From: a virus
Taxonomy: Duplodnaviria > Heunggongvirae > Uroviricota > Caudoviricetes
Strand: one strand, 5' to 3'
Length of the DNA: 4,738 bases
IMG/VR virus record: IMGVR_UViG_2703718784_000012
Coordinates: 1 to 4,738 of that record
Part shown: piece by piece, positions 1 through 4,738 of the stretch
How positions within the stretch are numbered: position 1 is the first letter of the stretch
How the letters are laid out: the number at the start of each line of letters is the position of its first letter
Notes under the pieces: model-generated
Seen by the model: the letters and a program-made list of their open reading frames with translations, nothing else
Databases searched by the model: none
Told to the model about the DNA's origin: nothing
Made by a program: the position numbers and the translations under genes

Positions 1-158
1 TGAGGATGAAATAATCCCGTTCAGCGGTGTCTGCCAGTCGGGGGCCGGTTGCATTATCCACGCCGGAGGTGCCGGTGGCTTCACGCACGGTACCGTGGCA
101 GGTGGCGTTGATCCGCAGGCGCTTACGACCAGCGGCAACATCAGCACGCAGAGTTTCA
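1..158 (-). CDS. Rz1: Rz1-type o-spanin (outer-membrane lipoprotein) embedded in the +1 frame of Rz; last few codons outside the window
   Basis: ATG at 158..156 inside Rz in an alternate frame; translation MKLCVLMLPLVVSACGSTPPATVPCVKPPAPPAWIMQPAPDWQTPLNGIISSS shows a lipoprotein signal with lipobox VSAC and a proline-rich mature part, matching the remembered lambda Rz1 pattern (PPAWIMQPPPDWQTPLNGII). Confidence 0.8.
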
Positions 159-394
159 TTTTCAGCTCTCGCATCGGCTAATTCCCTCGAGTATTTTGCA
201 TCGAGCGCAGCAACATCGCGCTGGCGCACCTGCATATCAGTAATGGTTGCGTTCGCCAGCTTCAGTTCACTGGCTTTGTTATCGCGCTGCGCTTTGTAGG
301 TAATCGCGTTATCACGGTAATGGTCTGTTGCCATCCACATCGCTCCACAGGCCACCAGCAGGACAATAATCACCACACACAGAACACGGTTCAT
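1..394 (-). CDS. Rz: Rz-type i-spanin (inner-membrane spanin subunit); C-terminal end lies outside the window
   Basis: Not in the ORF track because it has no stop inside the window. Reverse complement of 2..394 translates without stop as MNRVLCVVIIVLLVACGAMWMATDHYRDNAITYKAQRDNKASELKLANATITDMQVRQRDVAALDAKYSRELADARAENETLRADVAAGRKRLRINATCHGTVREATGTSGVDNATGPRLADTAERDYFIL. N-terminal TM helix then helical periplasmic region; closely resembles lambda Rz as I remember it (HYRDNAITYKAQRD, AERDYF). ATG at 394..392 preceded by GAGGGGG SD. Confidence 0.85.
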   Translation of the reverse strand, partial: MNRVLCVVIIVLLVACGAMWMATDHYRDNAITYKAQRDNKASELKLANATITDMQVRQRDVAALDAKYSRELADARAENETLRADVAAGRKRLRINATCHGTVREATGTSGVDNATGPRLADTAERDYFIL

Positions 395-534
395 ATCCCC
401 CTCACCCCAGCATCCCCGACGAAGACAACATCATCCAGCCCAGGGAAAGAAAAATAGCAACCAGCATTAGTGAAAATGAAATGCCGACGATTACACAGAG
501 GATCTTCGCCAGCGTTATGACGCTTGTCTGACAT
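391..534 (-). CDS. Hypothetical 47-aa ORF translationally coupled to Rz (possibly only a coupling leader ORF)
   Basis: Below the size cutoff of the supplied track. ATG 534..532 preceded by AAGAGGA (541..547) with a 6-nt spacer; translation MSDKRHNAGEDPLCNRRHFIFTNAGCYFSFPGLDDVVFVGDAGVRGI; stop TGA (393..391) overlaps the Rz ATG as ATGA. Signals are good but the protein has no recognisable features. Confidence 0.3.
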   Translation of the reverse strand: MSDKRHNAGEDPLCNRRHFIFTNAGCYFSFPGLDDVVFVGDAGVRGI

Positions 535-546
535 GCTTAATCCTCT

Positions 547-729
547 TCACGATTTCAACGCAATGACCAGTTTTGCTAGTCCATACAGCATCGGAGACAC
601 AGCAATACCGACCGCCACCCACTTAATAGCAAAAGCCAGCGCTCTGCTGATGTCATCAGTTACAGGCGCTTTCAGTTCAAGGCCGTTTTTCATAGTCAAC
701 CTCAACAGAATTCGTTTATACTTTTCCAT
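547..729 (-). CDS. Hypothetical 60-aa protein with basic N-terminus and one C-terminal hydrophobic helix
   Basis: Track ORF 547..762 starts at a GTG inside the terminator hairpin with no SD. The internal ATG at 729..727 has AGGGAG 3-4 nt upstream, giving MEKYKRILLRLTMKNGLELKAPVTDDISRALAFAIKWVAVGIAVSPMLYGLAKLVIALKS. No family recognised. Confidence 0.45.
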   Translation of the reverse strand: MEKYKRILLRLTMKNGLELKAPVTDDISRALAFAIKWVAVGIAVSPMLYGLAKLVIALKS

Positions 730-762
730 GTTCTCCCTTGCCTTATCCAAGGTCAGAAACAC

Positions 763-803
763 AAAACCCCGCTTGCTGCCAACAAACGGGGTTTTTACTT
801 TTA
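763..803. terminator. Bidirectional intrinsic-terminator-like hairpin between endolysin and downstream small ORFs
   Basis: Stem 767..775 CCCCGCTTG pairs with 783..791 CAAACGGGG (one mismatch), 7-nt loop; flanked by AAAA (763..766) and TTTTTACTTTT (792..802), so a U-tract follows the hairpin on both strands. Confidence 0.5.
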
Positions 804-885
804 TTCACTTAGGTTTTGCCAGTTCGCAGGATTTCGTGTTATCCGTCCGCGTTGGCCAACGTCATTTTTCAGCAAAATATTCTGC

Positions 886-1419
886 TTATCTGTCGATTCC
901 CCAGCACGCCAGCGCGCTCTCCTGGTCACGACGGGATATCTGGCCGTAACAGTTGTTTGAGCGGATACGGCAGTCTCTGCCACCGTCCTTAATCCACCAG
1001 CGAATCGCTTCACACGCTCCCCTGCGATCGCCTGCATTAATTCGTTTATAAAACGTCGACGGGAAACACTTACCGGGGCCAATGTTATACGGGCAGAATG
1101 ACGCGATCCCCGCTTTCTGGGGTTCAGTCAGTGGCACCCGGATGTTTTTCTCCACCCATGCCAGCGCCTTATCACGCTCAATGGCGTTAACCTGGTCGCA
1201 TTTTTTCTTCGACAACTTCATGCCCGGGACGACAGGTTTGCCATCCACCCTGGTGGCACCACGACAAATGGTCCAGATCCCCGCACCATCACGGTATGCC
1301 GTGGTGTGGTTACCTTCTTTTTCATCCAGAAACTGGTCGAGAATATCAGGCGCAGGCGCCCCTGCGGCAATCAGCGCCAGAACGGCAGCCGACAGGCCGT
1401 ATTTGATTTTGGTGTTCAT
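886..1419 (-). CDS. R: SAR endolysin (signal-anchor-release lysozyme, T4-lysozyme-like glycoside hydrolase)
   Basis: 177-aa ORF MNTKIKYGLSAAVLALIAAGAPAPDILDQFLDEKEGNHTTAYRDGAGIWTICRG. Weakly hydrophobic Gly/Ala-rich N-terminal segment typical of a SAR domain, then E35-x8-D44-x5-T50, the catalytic triad spacing of phage 21 R21-type lysozymes as I recall it. Partnered with a pinholin upstream, as expected for this lysis type. No canonical SD upstream of ATG 1419. Confidence 0.9.
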   Translation of the reverse strand: MNTKIKYGLSAAVLALIAAGAPAPDILDQFLDEKEGNHTTAYRDGAGIWTICRGATRVDGKPVVPGMKLSKKKCDQVNAIERDKALAWVEKNIRVPLTEPQKAGIASFCPYNIGPGKCFPSTFYKRINAGDRRGACEAIRWWIKDGGRDCRIRSNNCYGQISRRDQESALACWGIDR

Positions 1420-1549
1420 GGATATTTATCAGGATTTATCGGTTCCGAATCCCTGGATATGTTAAGCCTTCACCCCACCAGTGGTGGGCACTGGCGGGTT
1501 CTTAATTTCCCCGGATGATCGTGGATTACATTCCACCAGGAGATTACTT

Positions 1550-2182
1550 ATGCTTATCTATCCAGCGGCAGACCTCCGTTTACAGGGACGCAGAGCACAA
1601 CCATGGGATAAAACAACCACTCATAAATATCGTCCCGGTCAATATTATGACTTTCGTAAACACCCGGAACTGATCGAGACACACCTTGAGGATTTTGTTG
1701 AATATTCAGACAGACAAGCGATTCAGACCTTTTTTTCTTTTGTTAAGTGGATCAACAGCAATTCATCTGCATTCGAGAGCACGGACTGCATGTTTTCAGG
1801 AACACCAAAGGTTGATGAATACGCCCCGGTATTTGGTTGCACCCATGCGTCATCTGGCCGCTTCGAATTTTTGTTTCGCGATACGAAAATAAACCAAAAT
1901 GAGCGAGCTGTCGGATGGGTACTTAACAAACTATCGCTCTACCTTCAGAAAGAACGGCCCGATTTTTGTAAAGGAACCTTTGGCATCGTTCCCCTCATGA
2001 CGGAATATACCGACTCCGGCAGTAACGAGTTCACCGGTTATCGTATTTGTGTCTATTTCGATGCTTACGGGAATGGAACAGAGGATACCTGGACTTCTCT
2101 CAACATCATGTTTGATGGCCTCATGAAAGCCACCAAAAGAATGAGCAATGAAACAATCACTGGCGAGATGCGTCCCCTTTAA
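1550..2182 (+). CDS. Hypothetical ~210-aa protein, opposite strand to the lysis genes (moron-like cargo)
   Basis: ORF open from 1481; ATG at 1550 chosen because AGGAG (1538..1542) sits 7 nt upstream. Stop TAA 2180..2182 is followed 26 nt later by a hairpin plus T7. Sampled 60-nt blocks are about 35-45% GC versus about 55% in the endolysin. No motif I can assign. The 3' 252 nt overlap minus ORF 1931..2722 in the codon-aligned antisense frame, so one of the two may be a shadow. Confidence 0.5.
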   Translation: MLIYPAADLRLQGRRAQPWDKTTTHKYRPGQYYDFRKHPELIETHLEDFVEYSDRQAIQTFFSFVKWINSNSSAFESTDCMFSGTPKVDEYAPVFGCTHASSGRFEFLFRDTKINQNERAVGWVLNKLSLYLQKERPDFCKGTFGIVPLMTEYTDSGSNEFTGYRICVYFDAYGNGTEDTWTSLNIMFDGLMKATKRMSNETITGEMRPL

Positions 2183-2722
2183 AAAATTATCCAGAATTTC
2201 ACTATTTGCAGAGCGCTCTCTGTTTTTTTGAATACGGAAACACTCTGCGAGATTTCTGCTCATCACTTTCCGGCAATAATCGTAAAACGCCGCGAACTGC
2301 TCATCACGGCGTTTTTTTTCACCTTCGGAAGGGATCTGCACCGACAGTTTTTTATTCAGTTCAACGACGCTGTTCTCCAGTTTTTCAATGCGTGATTCGA
2401 TATCATCTTTTTCTGACTGTATCGTGTTATATGCATTGTTAATTTGTATGGTATACCGCTCTTCTGAACAAAGGCGCTTTTCCGGCAACGGTTCGTTCCC
2501 TTCACATAACCCGGCAGCAATATCCATGAAAAACTGCTTCGCCTTCTTTTTCGCCTCAGCTTCGTAAAACTCCAGCGGGGCACCTTCAACACGATCAAGA
2601 TCAATCACCACATTTGGCAACAACAGTGACGTATACCCACCAGTTTCCAGCGCCACAGTAACAGTAATCTTATCCGGGTAAATATTTATCCCTTTAACAA
2701 CCAGTTCGTATTGTTTATTCAT
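1931..2722 (-). CDS. Hypothetical 263-aa protein translationally coupled to the pinholin; central coiled-coil-like segment
   Basis: ATG 2722..2720 lies 3 nt after the holin stop TAG (2728..2726); SD GGAG at 2734..2731 with 8-nt spacer lies inside the holin 3' end. Translation MNKQYELVVKGINIYPDKITVTVALETGGYTSLLLPNVVIDLDRVEGAP..., heptad-like middle (DIESRIEKLENSVVELNKKL). The C-terminal 84 codons are antisense to the plus-strand ORF 1550..2182. No family recognised. Confidence 0.5.
   Translation of the reverse strand: MNKQYELVVKGINIYPDKITVTVALETGGYTSLLLPNVVIDLDRVEGAPLEFYEAEAKKKAKQFFMDIAAGLCEGNEPLPEKRLCSEERYTIQINNAYNTIQSEKDDIESRIEKLENSVVELNKKLSVQIPSEGEKKRRDEQFAAFYDYCRKVMSRNLAECFRIQKNRERSANSEILDNFLKGTHLASDCFIAHSFGGFHEAIKHDVERSPGILCSIPVSIEIDTNTITGELVTAGVGIFRHEGNDAKGSFTKIGPFFLKVER
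2208..2229 (+). terminator. Intrinsic-terminator-like hairpin plus T7 after the plus-strand cargo ORF
   Basis: CAGAG (2209..2213), loop CGCT, CTCTG (2218..2222), then TTTTTTT (2223..2229). Short 5-bp stem, so moderate at best. It lies inside the minus-strand 263-aa ORF. Confidence 0.4.
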
Positions 2723-2725
2723 CGT

Positions 2726-2941
2726 CTACTCTCCCCGCGCCGCCTTACGCCGGTCTTCTTTAATTTTGAAATACAGGTTCGTCAGATATGTCAGCAGACC
2801 AAACAGCAGACTCCCCAGCACGCCTATTGCCGCCCACTGAGACGGGGAAACCCTGTCCAGCAACTGCAGGAACCAGTAGCCCGTTCCCACCGCTGACGTG
2901 GTGTATGACACACCTGTTGTGATTTTTTCCATCTGGTACAT
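2726..2941 (-). CDS. S: Pinholin, phage 21 S21-type class II holin with dual-start (antiholin/holin) motif
   Basis: 71 aa [71 protein letters not shown]: two TM segments (first Gly/Ser/Thr-rich), charged C-terminus, Met1 and Met4 as alternative starts. Very close to my memory of S21 ([36 protein letters not shown]). SD GGGAG (2953..2949) 7 nt upstream of ATG 2941. Confidence 0.9.
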
Positions 2942-3016
2942 ACCCCGTCTCCCGCAATCCGGAAGCTCACAACAACAAGTGGGGCATCAGCTCACACCGA
3001 CACCCCCTGCGCATGG

Positions 3017-3286
3017 TTACATCATCATTTCGCCGTCAGGCTGAGGCTCTTCACTACCGTCAGGCTGAGACCCGACGCCATCTGAAACAGCACTGTCATC
3101 CGCAATGCCTTCCGGCTCCGGAACAGTCGGTGCGCCCAGCAGTTCATCCAGAATGGCATCCACTTCTGCATCAAGACGCGCCTCAAGGTTCTGCCGAAGT
3201 TGCTGTTTCAGTGCGCTTCTGACTTCTTCAGAGCGCAGGACTTCCTTCACTGCCTCAGCAGTGACCAGCGATTTTATTTCTGACAT
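3017..3286 (-). CDS. Hypothetical 89-aa acidic helical protein
   Basis: Track ORF 3017..3439; the N-terminal extension would overlap the upstream small ORF and looks non-protein-like. Internal ATG at 3286..3284 gives MSEIKSLVTAEAVKEVLRSEEVRSALKQQLRQNLEARLDAEVDAILDELLGAPTVPEPEGIADDSAVSDGVGSQPDGSEEPQPDGEMMM; weak SD (GAGAAAA). No family recognised. Confidence 0.5.
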   Translation of the reverse strand: MSEIKSLVTAEAVKEVLRSEEVRSALKQQLRQNLEARLDAEVDAILDELLGAPTVPEPEGIADDSAVSDGVGSQPDGSEEPQPDGEMMM

Positions 3287-3311
3287 AGGATTTTCTCGTT
3301 GAAAGGGGTTA

Positions 3312-3506
3312 TTAAGAAGGTTGTTCCGGAATGAGTGGGGCTTCTGTTTTTGCTCCGGCTGACTGACTGGCGCTGATTTTCTCTGCGGCCCTTTTATCAA
3401 TCTGCCTGCGCCAGGAATCGCGCACTGCCCTGTACCCACCCGAAAGAAGATACAGCACGCATACCACCGTACAGAAGTACAGCATCACCTGATGAACAAA
3501 TGTCAT
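3312..3506 (-). CDS. Hypothetical 64-aa small membrane protein
   Basis: MTFVHQVMLYFCTVVCVLYLLSGGYRAVRDSWRRQIDKRAAEKISASQSAGAKTEAPLIPEQPS: one N-terminal TM helix then a basic tail. Weak SD. An alternative overlapping ORF (3397..3579) cannot be excluded. Confidence 0.4.
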   Translation of the reverse strand: MTFVHQVMLYFCTVVCVLYLLSGGYRAVRDSWRRQIDKRAAEKISASQSAGAKTEAPLIPEQPS

Positions 3507-3524
3507 AGTTTCTTACCGTTATGG

Positions 3525-3554
3525 TTGACTCTGGAAGCAGTTTTCGTTTAAAAA
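3525..3554 (+). promoter_or_regulatory. Weak sigma70-like promoter candidate on the plus strand
   Basis: TTGACT (3525..3530), 18-nt spacer, TAAAAA (3549..3554). The -35 is near consensus but the -10 lacks the conserved final T, so this is weak. Confidence 0.15.
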
Positions 3555-3609
3555 ATACCAGTGACGAAAGTGATATCATCTTTCCCTGATTCTCACCATG
3601 AATCTCACA

Positions 3610-3645
3610 CCGCCAGGGGTTTCAGGCCAGCTGGCGGTTTTTTTT
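3610..3645 (+). terminator. GC-rich hairpin followed by T8 (plus-strand intrinsic-terminator-like element)
   Basis: CCGCCAG (3610..3616) can pair with CTGGCGG (3631..3637); an internal 10-nt palindrome GCCAGCTGGC (3626..3635) offers an alternative stem; followed by TTTTTTTT (3638..3645). On the minus strand the hairpin is preceded by A8 and not followed by a U-tract, so it is oriented for plus-strand transcripts only. Confidence 0.45.
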
Positions 3646-3650
3646 GCCGG

Positions 3651-4738
3651 TTATGCTGATTCCCGGTTTTCGTTAACTTTGACTGTGACCGTATCAAGCA
3701 GTACCGGATACGTCGCTTTTGCCCCCGTGATATCTGTCAGCGTCAGCGTATCTGCTGTAAAGCCATCATTTGTCCACATCACAAGGTCAAATGCCGTCTG
3801 CTCTGCACCATCAATCACCGGAACAACTCTTTCGCTGTTATTTCCCGCAAAGCGGAAAACAACCGTATGCCAGTTATGGTCAAACGTACCAAATGTACCC
3901 AGTTGTGCATTCGAGGAGCCCTTCTGGTGCATCAGATTAAGATTTGATGTATCCGTCTGAAGGAAGAATGATGCCAGCATACTGTTTGCTGTCGCGCCTG
4001 ACGCCCACTGCGACACCGGCCAGTAGATACCAAAGACAAACTGTCCGTTCACCAGCTCGCTTCCATCCGGAATTTTGAACCGTACGGCAATTTCCCCCCC
4101 CTTGCTGAGAAGATTTTTTGCCTCCTCCACTGCAATAGTACGGAACATTTTCCAGGACGTCAGTTTACCGGGCTGTTTTTCCAGTCGCAGCGCTTTCCGT
4201 CCACCGTCATCAGTCACAGTGCCTTTGCCGCCGGAAGCGCCCCACTGCTGCTCTGTCAATGCACCATTTCCACTGTTCGCATCATATTCAGCCACCGTCC
4301 TGGTACTGCTCACGGCCTCATCATGACCAGTACCAGCAACACCGCCATCCTGCGGTTTCTCAACATCCGGTGTCCCCGGACTGACAGGCGTTGTACCACC
4401 CGACTGCGGTGCGCTCTGCCCGGTAAGGAACGATAATGTCCGCCCGGCGTACTGCAAAATGGCACCTGCCAGGCGGTCTGAAACAAGGCCTCTTCGCGCC
4501 CATGAACTGAAGTGCGTTTTACGATCGGCTGCCGTCCAGTTACTGGCAGTGCGTGACGCAGCGCCATAGTATCCCGCCGGGATAATGTCCGGATCTTCTG
4601 ACGGCTCGTTTGTCGGCACATTCACACCATGCTCATCCGTCATCAACGGCACAAAGTGAATATTCTGCGCAGCTTTTCCTTTATACCCACCGTAAACCGC
4701 CTCATACGGCACTGCATACCTTTCCTTCCAGTAGTACG
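3651..4738 (-). CDS. Large hypothetical protein, 3' portion only (ORF continues upstream beyond the window end)
   Basis: Track ORF 3651..4712 starts at a GTG, but the frame stays open to the window edge (upstream codons read YYWKERYA), so the true start is outside. Stop TAA at 3653..3651. Has a Gly/Ser/Thr/Pro-rich linker (GQSAPQSGGTTPVSPGTPDVEKPQDGGVAGTGHDE) between two globular-looking parts. It occupies the slot upstream of the holin where Stx phages carry stx and a large esterase-like ORF, but I see no diagnostic motif. Confidence 0.7.
   Translation of the reverse strand, partial: YYWKERYAVPYEAVYGGYKGKAAQNIHFVPLMTDEHGVNVPTNEPSEDPDIIPAGYYGAASRTASNWTAADRKTHFSSWARRGLVSDRLAGAILQYAGRTLSFLTGQSAPQSGGTTPVSPGTPDVEKPQDGGVAGTGHDEAVSSTRTVAEYDANSGNGALTEQQWGASGGKGTVTDDGGRKALRLEKQPGKLTSWKMFRTIAVEEAKNLLSKGGEIAVRFKIPDGSELVNGQFVFGIYWPVSQWASGATANSMLASFFLQTDTSNLNLMHQKGSSNAQLGTFGTFDHNWHTVVFRFAGNNSERVVPVIDGAEQTAFDLVMWTNDGFTADTLTLTDITGAKATYPVLLDTVTVKVNENRESA

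Follow-up and report, generated by a model that had tools for sequence, protein, structure and literature searches.

The DNA analyzed here (the window, 4,738 bases, positions 1 to 4,738 of the IMG/VR virus record IMGVR_UViG_2703718784_000012) is the late region of a Shiga toxin (Stx)-type lambdoid prophage, and its flanks are matched by megablast in hundreds of Stx phages. Between its holin (S) and endolysin (R) genes we found a pair of genes lying antisense to each other. Gene A (1550..2182, plus strand, 210 amino acids, aa) runs convergent to the late operon, while gene B, which related phages keep as a second gene in the antisense of A, is present in the window as the last part of a 263-aa open reading frame (ORF) of the late strand (1931..2722, minus strand, from the ORF table), in which a DUF1327 gene beginning 4 bases after the holin stop is fused to it in frame. 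The 252 bases from 1931 to 2182 are a two-strand coding stretch (A codons 128–210 and their codon-for-codon antisense), an overlap of the two ORFs that is absent from an earlier reading of this DNA made from its letters alone (the sequence-only reading). That reading had singled out the interval between S and R as the best candidate for an undescribed system, and something undescribed is indeed there, namely the A/B sense/antisense pair. The S-cargo-R layout as such is ordinary; the interest lies in this embedded pair, which annotation pipelines overlook. We regard the anatomical claims, which derive from comparing sequences, as very probable, whereas the combined reading, in which the pair also serves as a switch between lysogeny and lytic growth, seems to us evenly balanced.

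Gene A and the gene in its antisense strand

Gene A lies within the ORF 1481-2182 and probably starts with the ATG at 1550, which is preceded 7 bases upstream by a directly readable ribosome-binding site (AGGAG, 1538..1542, plus strand). The sequence-only reading had credited this convergent gene with its own Shine-Dalgarno sequence, which is borne out, and with its own terminator, which fared less well. A terminator-like hairpin with a T7 run (2208..2230, plus strand) stands 26 bases after A's stop and is the sole such site in 1300-2900, but the evidence is weak because shuffled sequence averages 1.5 such sites per region. Homologues of A are full length (~205–220 aa) at 29–65% identity, with 65% in Salmonella, 49–54% in Klebsiella/Enterobacter, Yersinia, Photorhabdus, Xenorhabdus and Moellerella, 36% in Pseudomonas and 30% in a metagenome. 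An exhaustive profile search gathered 251 cluster representatives at E <= 1e-3, and the genome scan added homologues in Myxococcota, Planctomycetota, Verrucomicrobia, Heliomicrobium and Leptospirales. Structure prediction with a fold search, a check that had been proposed together with the first reading, gave a confident alpha/beta AlphaFold2 (AF2) model of A (predicted local distance difference test, pLDDT, 83.6; predicted template modeling score, pTM, 0.83) with no meaningful fold match in PDB or BFVD, and sequence-profile searches of PDB with A returned noise only (E >= 0.4). Because length is kept in homologues down to 29% identity, the representatives are this numerous and the model is confident, we take A to be a real gene of an uncharacterized family.

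Neither A nor 90 of its relatives matched Pfam or PHROGs, and scans of NCBIfam were likewise empty. Against PADLOC-DB v2 (5027 defense models), A and the 263-aa ORF had no match at E <= 1, and the 90 relatives gave just three single matches at E ~0.008, none of them significant. The nearly invariant residues of A include R15, E47, D48, E76, D79, R104, R110 and N115, which may form an active site, though this is only an impression; the HEPN Rx4-6H motif is not among the conserved residues.

The evidence for B comes mainly from the way in which the antisense frame of A is kept open in its relatives. Counted from A's 3' end, the B frame is free of stops over 82–95 codons in nine of ten enterobacterial homologues, and likewise over 81–95 codons in each of the 32 distinct IMG/VR copies; the antisense of A's 5' two-thirds holds 2–15 stops per gene. 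In a sample of 18 A representatives below 80% identity, the codons TTA, CTA and TCA, which read as stops on the other strand, account for 113 of the 343 Leu/Ser codons in the 5' part of A versus 3 of the 199 among its last 80 codons (Fisher p = 4e-22), with all three exceptions in a Salmonella prophage remnant (L004). Synonymous shuffles within genes yielded P values of 0.00015–0.04 in eight of ten genes, and the codon for Leu128, whose antisense is B's stop, is TTA or CTA in nine of ten. At fourfold sites of A, third-position identity is 0.437 in the overlap vs 0.275 outside it (Wilcoxon p = 1.5e-13, for pairs that are not independent), while the amino-acid identity of A is equal in both parts (0.49 vs 0.50). 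In the B frame, amino-acid identity reaches 0.35, compared with 0.26 when that frame is read in the 5' part of A, and no further conserved ORFs occur in the antisense frames of that part. Three low-GC, non-phage homologues of A (L017, L030 and L032) are full of antisense stops throughout; the amino-acid sequence of A does not, therefore, by itself keep the B frame open, and B seems to have originated by overprinting within the phage-borne lineage.

In the relatives B also has the start signals of a gene. It begins with ATG or GTG 3–11 codons past A's stop, outside the coding sequence of A, after sites such as GGAGG, AGGAG or GAGG, and its length differs by clade (89–90, 95 or 100 aa, with free-standing forms of 104 aa). 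In L104 the first 4 bases of B, and in L091 its first 14, also belong to the upstream late gene. B runs with phage late genes always, usually among the tail genes K/I/J, and it occasionally appears in databases as a called protein (P0207-P0215). In L047 and L048 a 104-aa B, 86% identical to that of the window, follows an S21 holin after 4 bases, and in L045 and L046 B is intact next to an A that has lost ~200 internal bases. The order in L045 (5001-5607) is a DUF1327-like 181-aa gene, the free-standing 104-aa B, the deleted A and a holin_8/holin_3_7/GH108 cassette. Searches of Pfam, PHROGs, NCBIfam and PADLOC placed B in no family. Taken together, the open frame and the synonymous constraint argue that B is a conserved second gene in the antisense of A in these relatives.

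The genomic contexts of A are varied. Klebsiella, Enterobacter, Yersinia and a divergent IMG/VR clade carry it between tail genes I and J, and a clade of about 50% GC has it between K and I. In Moellerella it is part of an Arc/Ant/Bro island, in one case immediately behind a cI-like repressor. A Salmonella P22-like prophage (L007) has it upstream of its holin, and it also occurs next to sodC in a prophage remnant. In all of these phage settings A is oriented antisense to the late genes. In L007, the defense system Kiwa (KwaA/KwaB, 9618-11257) is found 3 kb from A, between the Q antiterminator and the holin. The distant members of the family are in non-phage contexts with no recurring neighbor, and no conserved neighbor gene was found in 17 distant genomes; the neighbor "families" that seemed to emerge there were rejected as antisense shadows of A in GC-rich DNA. 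From these distributions the A/B unit is judged to be mobile. Morons, e.g., lambda bor/lom or HK97-type inserts, carry their own promoter and terminator, and the classical ones are single non-overlapping units. The A/B unit resembles them in being discrete, AT-richer (GC 0.45 vs ~0.55), variably present in close relatives (it is absent from the phage PhiR12_1) and inserted between late genes at several positions (at least four different genome positions), but unlike the classical morons it has a second gene embedded antisense, on the strand of the host operon.

Upstream of A there is a conserved block, ATCAGGAT-N22-TATGTT (1428..1463, plus strand), which is a candidate promoter/operator of A. 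The same block with the same 22-base spacing precedes A in L009, L010 and L011, all of them tail-gene contexts, and that of L045 has ATCAGGGT, one mismatch away. The leader of A also contains, by direct reading, a perfect 15-base palindrome, CCCACCAGTGGTGGG (1474..1488), near the left junction of the cargo at 1495/1496 (see below), which may serve for protein binding or for recombination. A terminator role for this palindrome was ruled out, as a T-run follows on neither strand.

The DUF1327 gene, the cargo and the fused B

As the sequence-only reading had stated, about 1.3 kb (1306 bases, 1420–2725) separate the holin from the endolysin, and this interval is AT-richer than its flanks, with GC of 0.41–0.47 over 1400–2700 vs 0.52–0.58 in the lysozyme and holin genes (200-base windows). 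It took S and R to be neighbors as a rule, as in a phage-21-type cassette, but this does not hold for these phages, since a DUF1327 gene intervenes in the K-12 prophage Qin (order essQ-ydfR-rrrQ), in the PhiR12 phages and in the Stx2a phage Stx2_95. The window gene sits as ydfR does in Qin, and as its counterparts do in PhiR12_1 and Stx2_95; in this phage group it is ordinary for a class II holin and a lysozyme to be separated by a DUF1327 gene. Parts of the S–R interval are matched in 1401 of 5426 complete Escherichia coli genomes.

Residues 1–96 of the 263-aa ORF (2435..2722, minus strand) are a DUF1327 Pfam domain (PF07041, E = 7.5e-34; 116.3 bits against a cut-off of 25), homologous to K-12 YdfR, and residues 1–168 match phrog_2091 end to end (E = 2.4e-85). 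Next comes the middle, coiled-coil-like part of the long DUF1327 proteins (residues 97 to ~165, 2226..2434, minus strand, ending ...RKVMSRNLAECF), which is common to the window, the 169-aa protein of PhiR12_1 and the 329-aa protein of Stx2_95. Compared with YdfR, the window protein has the same position and the same N-terminal domain, but YdfR has 103 aa, and the window protein continues into the long middle region and then into the B module, a C-terminus unique to it. Four forms of DUF1327 proteins were found, of 103 aa (YdfR, L025 6055-6366, minus strand), 169 aa (PhiR12_1, L001 3235-3744, minus strand), 263 aa (window) and 329 aa (Stx2_95, L042 1134-2123, minus strand), which share the N-terminal domain; the YdfR, PhiR12_1 and Stx2_95 proteins diverge at their C-termini after a common ...FAAFYDYC... 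segment. To judge from these alignments, the family is modular, with exchangeable C-terminal parts; the 125-residue C-terminus of the 329-aa form matched no family, and literature searches on DUF1327 and ydfR returned nothing functional. Profile searches had been proposed as a check on the two ORFs that the sequence-only reading could not place, and they split the pair: the minus-strand ORF belongs to DUF1327, a known if uncharacterized family, whereas A is unmatched in Pfam and PADLOC. Known families or a standard layout were to count against the idea of an undescribed system, and this applies to DUF1327 and its position but not to A.

Alignment with related prophages, the other check suggested, showed that part of the interval is an insert. 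By pairwise BLAST, 1-1495 and 2273-4738 are collinear with PhiR12_1, and between them the window has 777 bases (1496-2272) where PhiR12_1 has 303 unrelated ones, so the idea of a mobile cargo was sound. The right-hand junction can be set at 2226 because in another 617 E. coli genomes the match to the cargo query is confined to 2226-2272, the Stx2_95-type DUF1327 middle region. With the collinearity break at 1495 and DUF1327 similarity reaching to 2226, the real cargo is therefore, on this comparison, ~0.75 kb (about 1496–2225) and replaces the 3' end of DUF1327 and the sequence beyond it; the insert is not 1.3 kb as had been thought, the DUF1327 part being native. Within it, the similarity of A/B to L045-L048 ends at 2194 and that of DUF1327 at 2226, which leaves a 31-base joint (2195..2225) outside both similarities. 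On the minus strand this joint encodes the 11-residue linker RIQKNRERSAN, and on the plus strand it contains most of the terminator-like hairpin. At the place of A, PhiR12_1 has a different 86-aa ORF (L001 3027-3287, plus strand) downstream of the same ATCAGGAT...TATGTT block, and cassettes may be exchanged at this point behind a promoter common to both; a "DUF1823" label for the 86-aa ORF was dropped, as Pfam does not back it.

The whole 1.3 kb is present at >= 99% identity in 119 of the 5426 complete E. coli genomes, mostly Shiga toxin-producing E. coli of serogroups O26, O145, O157 and O103, and the inner 777 bases in 132 E. coli genomes and eight records of Stx1a/Stx2a-converting phages. 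That the interval is one 1.3-kb insert of two unplaced genes forming a defense, exclusion or toxin-antitoxin module, as the sequence-only reading favored, is in our view very unlikely. Such a module would fit the lower GC of the interval, the convergent arrangement of the genes and the Kiwa system near A in one Salmonella prophage, but its extent is contradicted by a DUF1327 part native to the junction, the 5027 defense models went unmatched by A, by the 263-aa ORF and by the 90 A relatives, and the pair, being convergent and overlapping by 252 bases, is not co-transcribed as a type II toxin-antitoxin pair is.

The B portion of the window corresponds to residues 174–263 of the fusion (1934..2203, minus strand), followed by a stop (1931-1933) that is the antisense of A's Leu128 codon, CTA. 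It is 86% and 76% identical to the 104-aa proteins P0213 and P0215, respectively, and 33–56% identical to the 89–90-aa B proteins. The relatives have a start of their own for B, but no ATG, GTG or TTG start is found at or inside the window portion, so B can be produced here only as the C-terminal 90 residues of the 263-aa DUF1327 protein. The comparison indicates that recombination removed the start of B and joined it in frame to DUF1327. Alternatively, A alone would be functional in the window and the 90-residue tail would be an accidental read-through relic of that recombination, the fusion having no role. This we consider unlikely, though several observations agree with it: the start of B is lost, an 11-codon joint that is in frame and free of stops is not very improbable by chance, B has decayed in the related Salmonella remnant L004, E. 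coli carries a single allele, and a 1-base deletion in E. coli ECA64 breaks both ORFs. A relic sits less well with a B frame that is still wholly open (shuffle P = 0.04), with the 86% identity to a free-standing B beside an S21 holin, and with DUF1327 proteins naturally having exchangeable C-terminal modules (103, 169 and 329 aa). In ECA64 (L044 1501-2276) the deletion leaves A as a 113-aa ORF and the fusion as a 161-aa ORF; among the matches listed, it is the sole E. coli genome with an annotation by the NCBI Prokaryotic Genome Annotation Pipeline (PGAP) across the cargo stretch.

Current annotation gives another picture of the locus. In RefSeq loci identical to window 1420-2473 (L002 6001-7054 and L003 4001-5054), PGAP calls just the first 83 codons of the 263-aa ORF, as a pseudogene. 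A is unannotated in both of them, and all but one of the other listed E. coli genomes have no feature under the match; in protein databases the E. coli A exists only as "partial" entries at contig ends. The DDBJ record Stx1_14040 lists the 263-aa ORF as a hypothetical protein, and the DDBJ Stx-phage records omit A. Read literally, the annotation of the identical loci describes a truncated DUF1327 pseudogene and ~1 kb of non-coding debris, a view that we find scarcely credible given that both ORFs are intact, that A is conserved at full length across phyla and that the similarity to DUF1327 reaches residue 168 and not 83.

A possible lysogeny/lytic switch and comparison with known systems

In the combined reading, A would be made in the lysogen from its own promoter as an accessory ("moron") protein. 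After induction, late transcription antiterminated by Q would run head-on through A, whose expression would be opposed by transcriptional interference and antisense RNA, and the same transcription would yield B, acting on or replacing the activity of A. The phage would thereby shut down the function of A while growing lytically itself, in the manner of Tha/Ith in Staphylococcus aureus prophages. In the I–J contexts a strong late-strand terminator, AGCCACCTTCGGGTGGCT followed by a T-run, separates the antisense of A from tail gene J and is kept between clades just 40% identical in A; the window is without one. This terminator points to a separate B/anti-A transcript in the absence of late antitermination. 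Two positions of this terminator are L011 5866-5883 and L098 3855-3872, both on the minus strand. Considered separately from the anatomy, the switch/inhibitor model is rather doubtful. Its more specific version, with A as a lysogen-expressed effector of new fold (e.g., abortive infection or exclusion) and B as an embedded late protein inhibitor grafted onto DUF1327 in Stx-type prophages, is a little less likely again; were it true, effector and antidote would be inseparable by recombination and A would be disarmed in the phage's own lytic growth.

The main rival holds that what counts is the translation of the B frame alone, with ribosomes shielding the late mRNA from Rho, from RNase III or from duplex formation and with a peptide that has no function; in the window the ribosomes of DUF1327 would just read on. 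It would account for several properties of B, such as its lack of a confident fold (AF2 of B alone, with nine sequences, pLDDT 44.8, which fits a disordered young protein equally well) and of any family match, its constant place in late operons, where it is sometimes translationally coupled to the upstream gene, and the tolerance of the window to loss of its start through fusion. We nevertheless think it improbable. The length of B and the position of its stop are kept within a few codons over clades just 38% identical in A, which mere translation would not demand, 380–510 bases of antisense A past B's stop go untranslated, the identity in the B frame exceeds that of the same frame in A's 5' part (0.35 vs 0.26), and the N-terminus of B, outside the overlap, keeps an amphipathic pattern, M-x-L-x-x-L-L-E-x-L-P-L-R.

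Several points weigh against the combined reading of an A/B pair with a switch. The absence of a confident fold for B is one of them, and part of the conservation of B is imposed by A. B is less secure in the E. coli/Salmonella subclade, where it is startless in the window, interrupted by stops in L004 and displaced at both start and stop in L007; the shuffle P value of the window itself is only 0.039, an in-frame join across 11 codons would arise by chance about once in five, and the 132 E. coli copies, all >= 99% identical, are uninformative on selection for the fusion. A scan for the sigma-70 consensus gave no promoter in the upstream block of A, and the link between A and defense has neither a PADLOC match nor a conserved partner in distant genomes behind it.

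The closest parallel for the proposed switch is Tha/Ith of S. aureus prophages, in which a defense protein expressed in lysogeny would block the phage's own growth and is switched off by a small protein that an opposite-strand gene supplies upon induction; the two transcription units overlap antisense and exclude each other (Rostol et al., 2024, PMC11087260). The likeness is one of architecture only, A/B being known here from sequences, and there is no sequence relationship between the two systems. Tha is a HEPN RNase, whereas A has neither the HEPN motif nor a known fold; ith belongs to the lysogeny module and has its own constitutive promoter, whereas B is in a late tail or lysis operon; and, unlike in Tha/Ith, the coding sequence of the small gene overlaps that of the large one by 83 codons. 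If the Tha/Ith-like reading were true, the idea of a prophage function switched off on induction would extend to Gram-negative lambdoid phages, with the off-switch inside the gene that it controls.

Antisense overlapping genes have been described in enterohemorrhagic E. coli (EHEC), i.e., asa, ano, laoB and oloz0137/4542/5029, with support from ribosome profiling (Ribo-seq) and mostly confined to Escherichia/Shigella (PMC6294744, PMC5960689, PMC5810103, PMC9927249). B is like them a protein ORF embedded antisense, the younger gene being narrower in its taxa than the "mother" gene, but it is conserved across clades 38% identical in A, by comparative evidence; that B is itself one of these EHEC genes was ruled out, as they are at other loci. 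In the Pseudomonas phage Fc02, olg1 and gene 10 are a lysogeny-strand and a lytic-strand gene that overlap antisense, and both are reported to give superinfection exclusion (PMC9936078). The Fc02 pair, however, belongs to the lysis–lysogeny control region of a Mu-like phage and its proteins are unrelated to A and B. Judged by its comparative evidence, A/B ranks with the better-supported cases, bacterial or phage, of long antisense overlap between genes, and the persistence of 83 shared codons in clades 38% identical makes it a clean test case for the origin and maintenance of overprinted genes. It also exposes an annotation gap, in that a conserved family of ~250 clusters, with one copy in the late operon of an Stx-converting phage, is missing from Pfam, PHROGs and PADLOC, and gene callers that forbid embedded ORFs will go on missing A in E. 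coli and B elsewhere.

The lysis cassette and other genes of the window

All recognizable phage genes of the window are on the minus strand (ORF table), and an Rfam scan of the window found no RNA family. The lysis cassette is of the phage-21 type, with an S21-family holin and a lysozyme that has a putative N-terminal signal-anchor-release (SAR) segment. The class II holin S (2726..2941, minus strand, 71 aa) matches PF04971 with 112.8 bits and is named "class II holin family protein" by RefSeq in the identical loci, and the SAR-type endolysin R (886..1419, minus strand, 177 aa; "lysozyme" in RefSeq) matches Phage_lysozyme PF00959 with 87.1 bits. Its N-terminus, GLSAAVLALIAAGAPA, is hydrophobic, from which the signal-anchor-release type is predicted.

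Upstream of the holin, Pfam matches were obtained for DUF826 (within 3017-3439), DUF1378 (3312-3506) and DUF6645 (3651-4712), all on the minus strand. The DUF6645 ORF (353 aa) begins just past an in-frame stop close to the window end; its homologue in PhiR12_1 has 661 aa, and PGAP flags the nearly identical CP55_Sichuan locus as "frameshifted." The gene is probably disrupted in the window. The 140-aa ORF at 3017-3439 (minus strand) overlaps the DUF1378 gene, and its DUF826 match covers residues 52–124 only; the true start of the DUF826 gene is probably an internal ATG near 3286. Finally, between R and Rz there is a 71-aa ORF (547-762, minus strand) that matches phrog_1115 (E = 6e-47) and has a hydrophobic C-terminal half.

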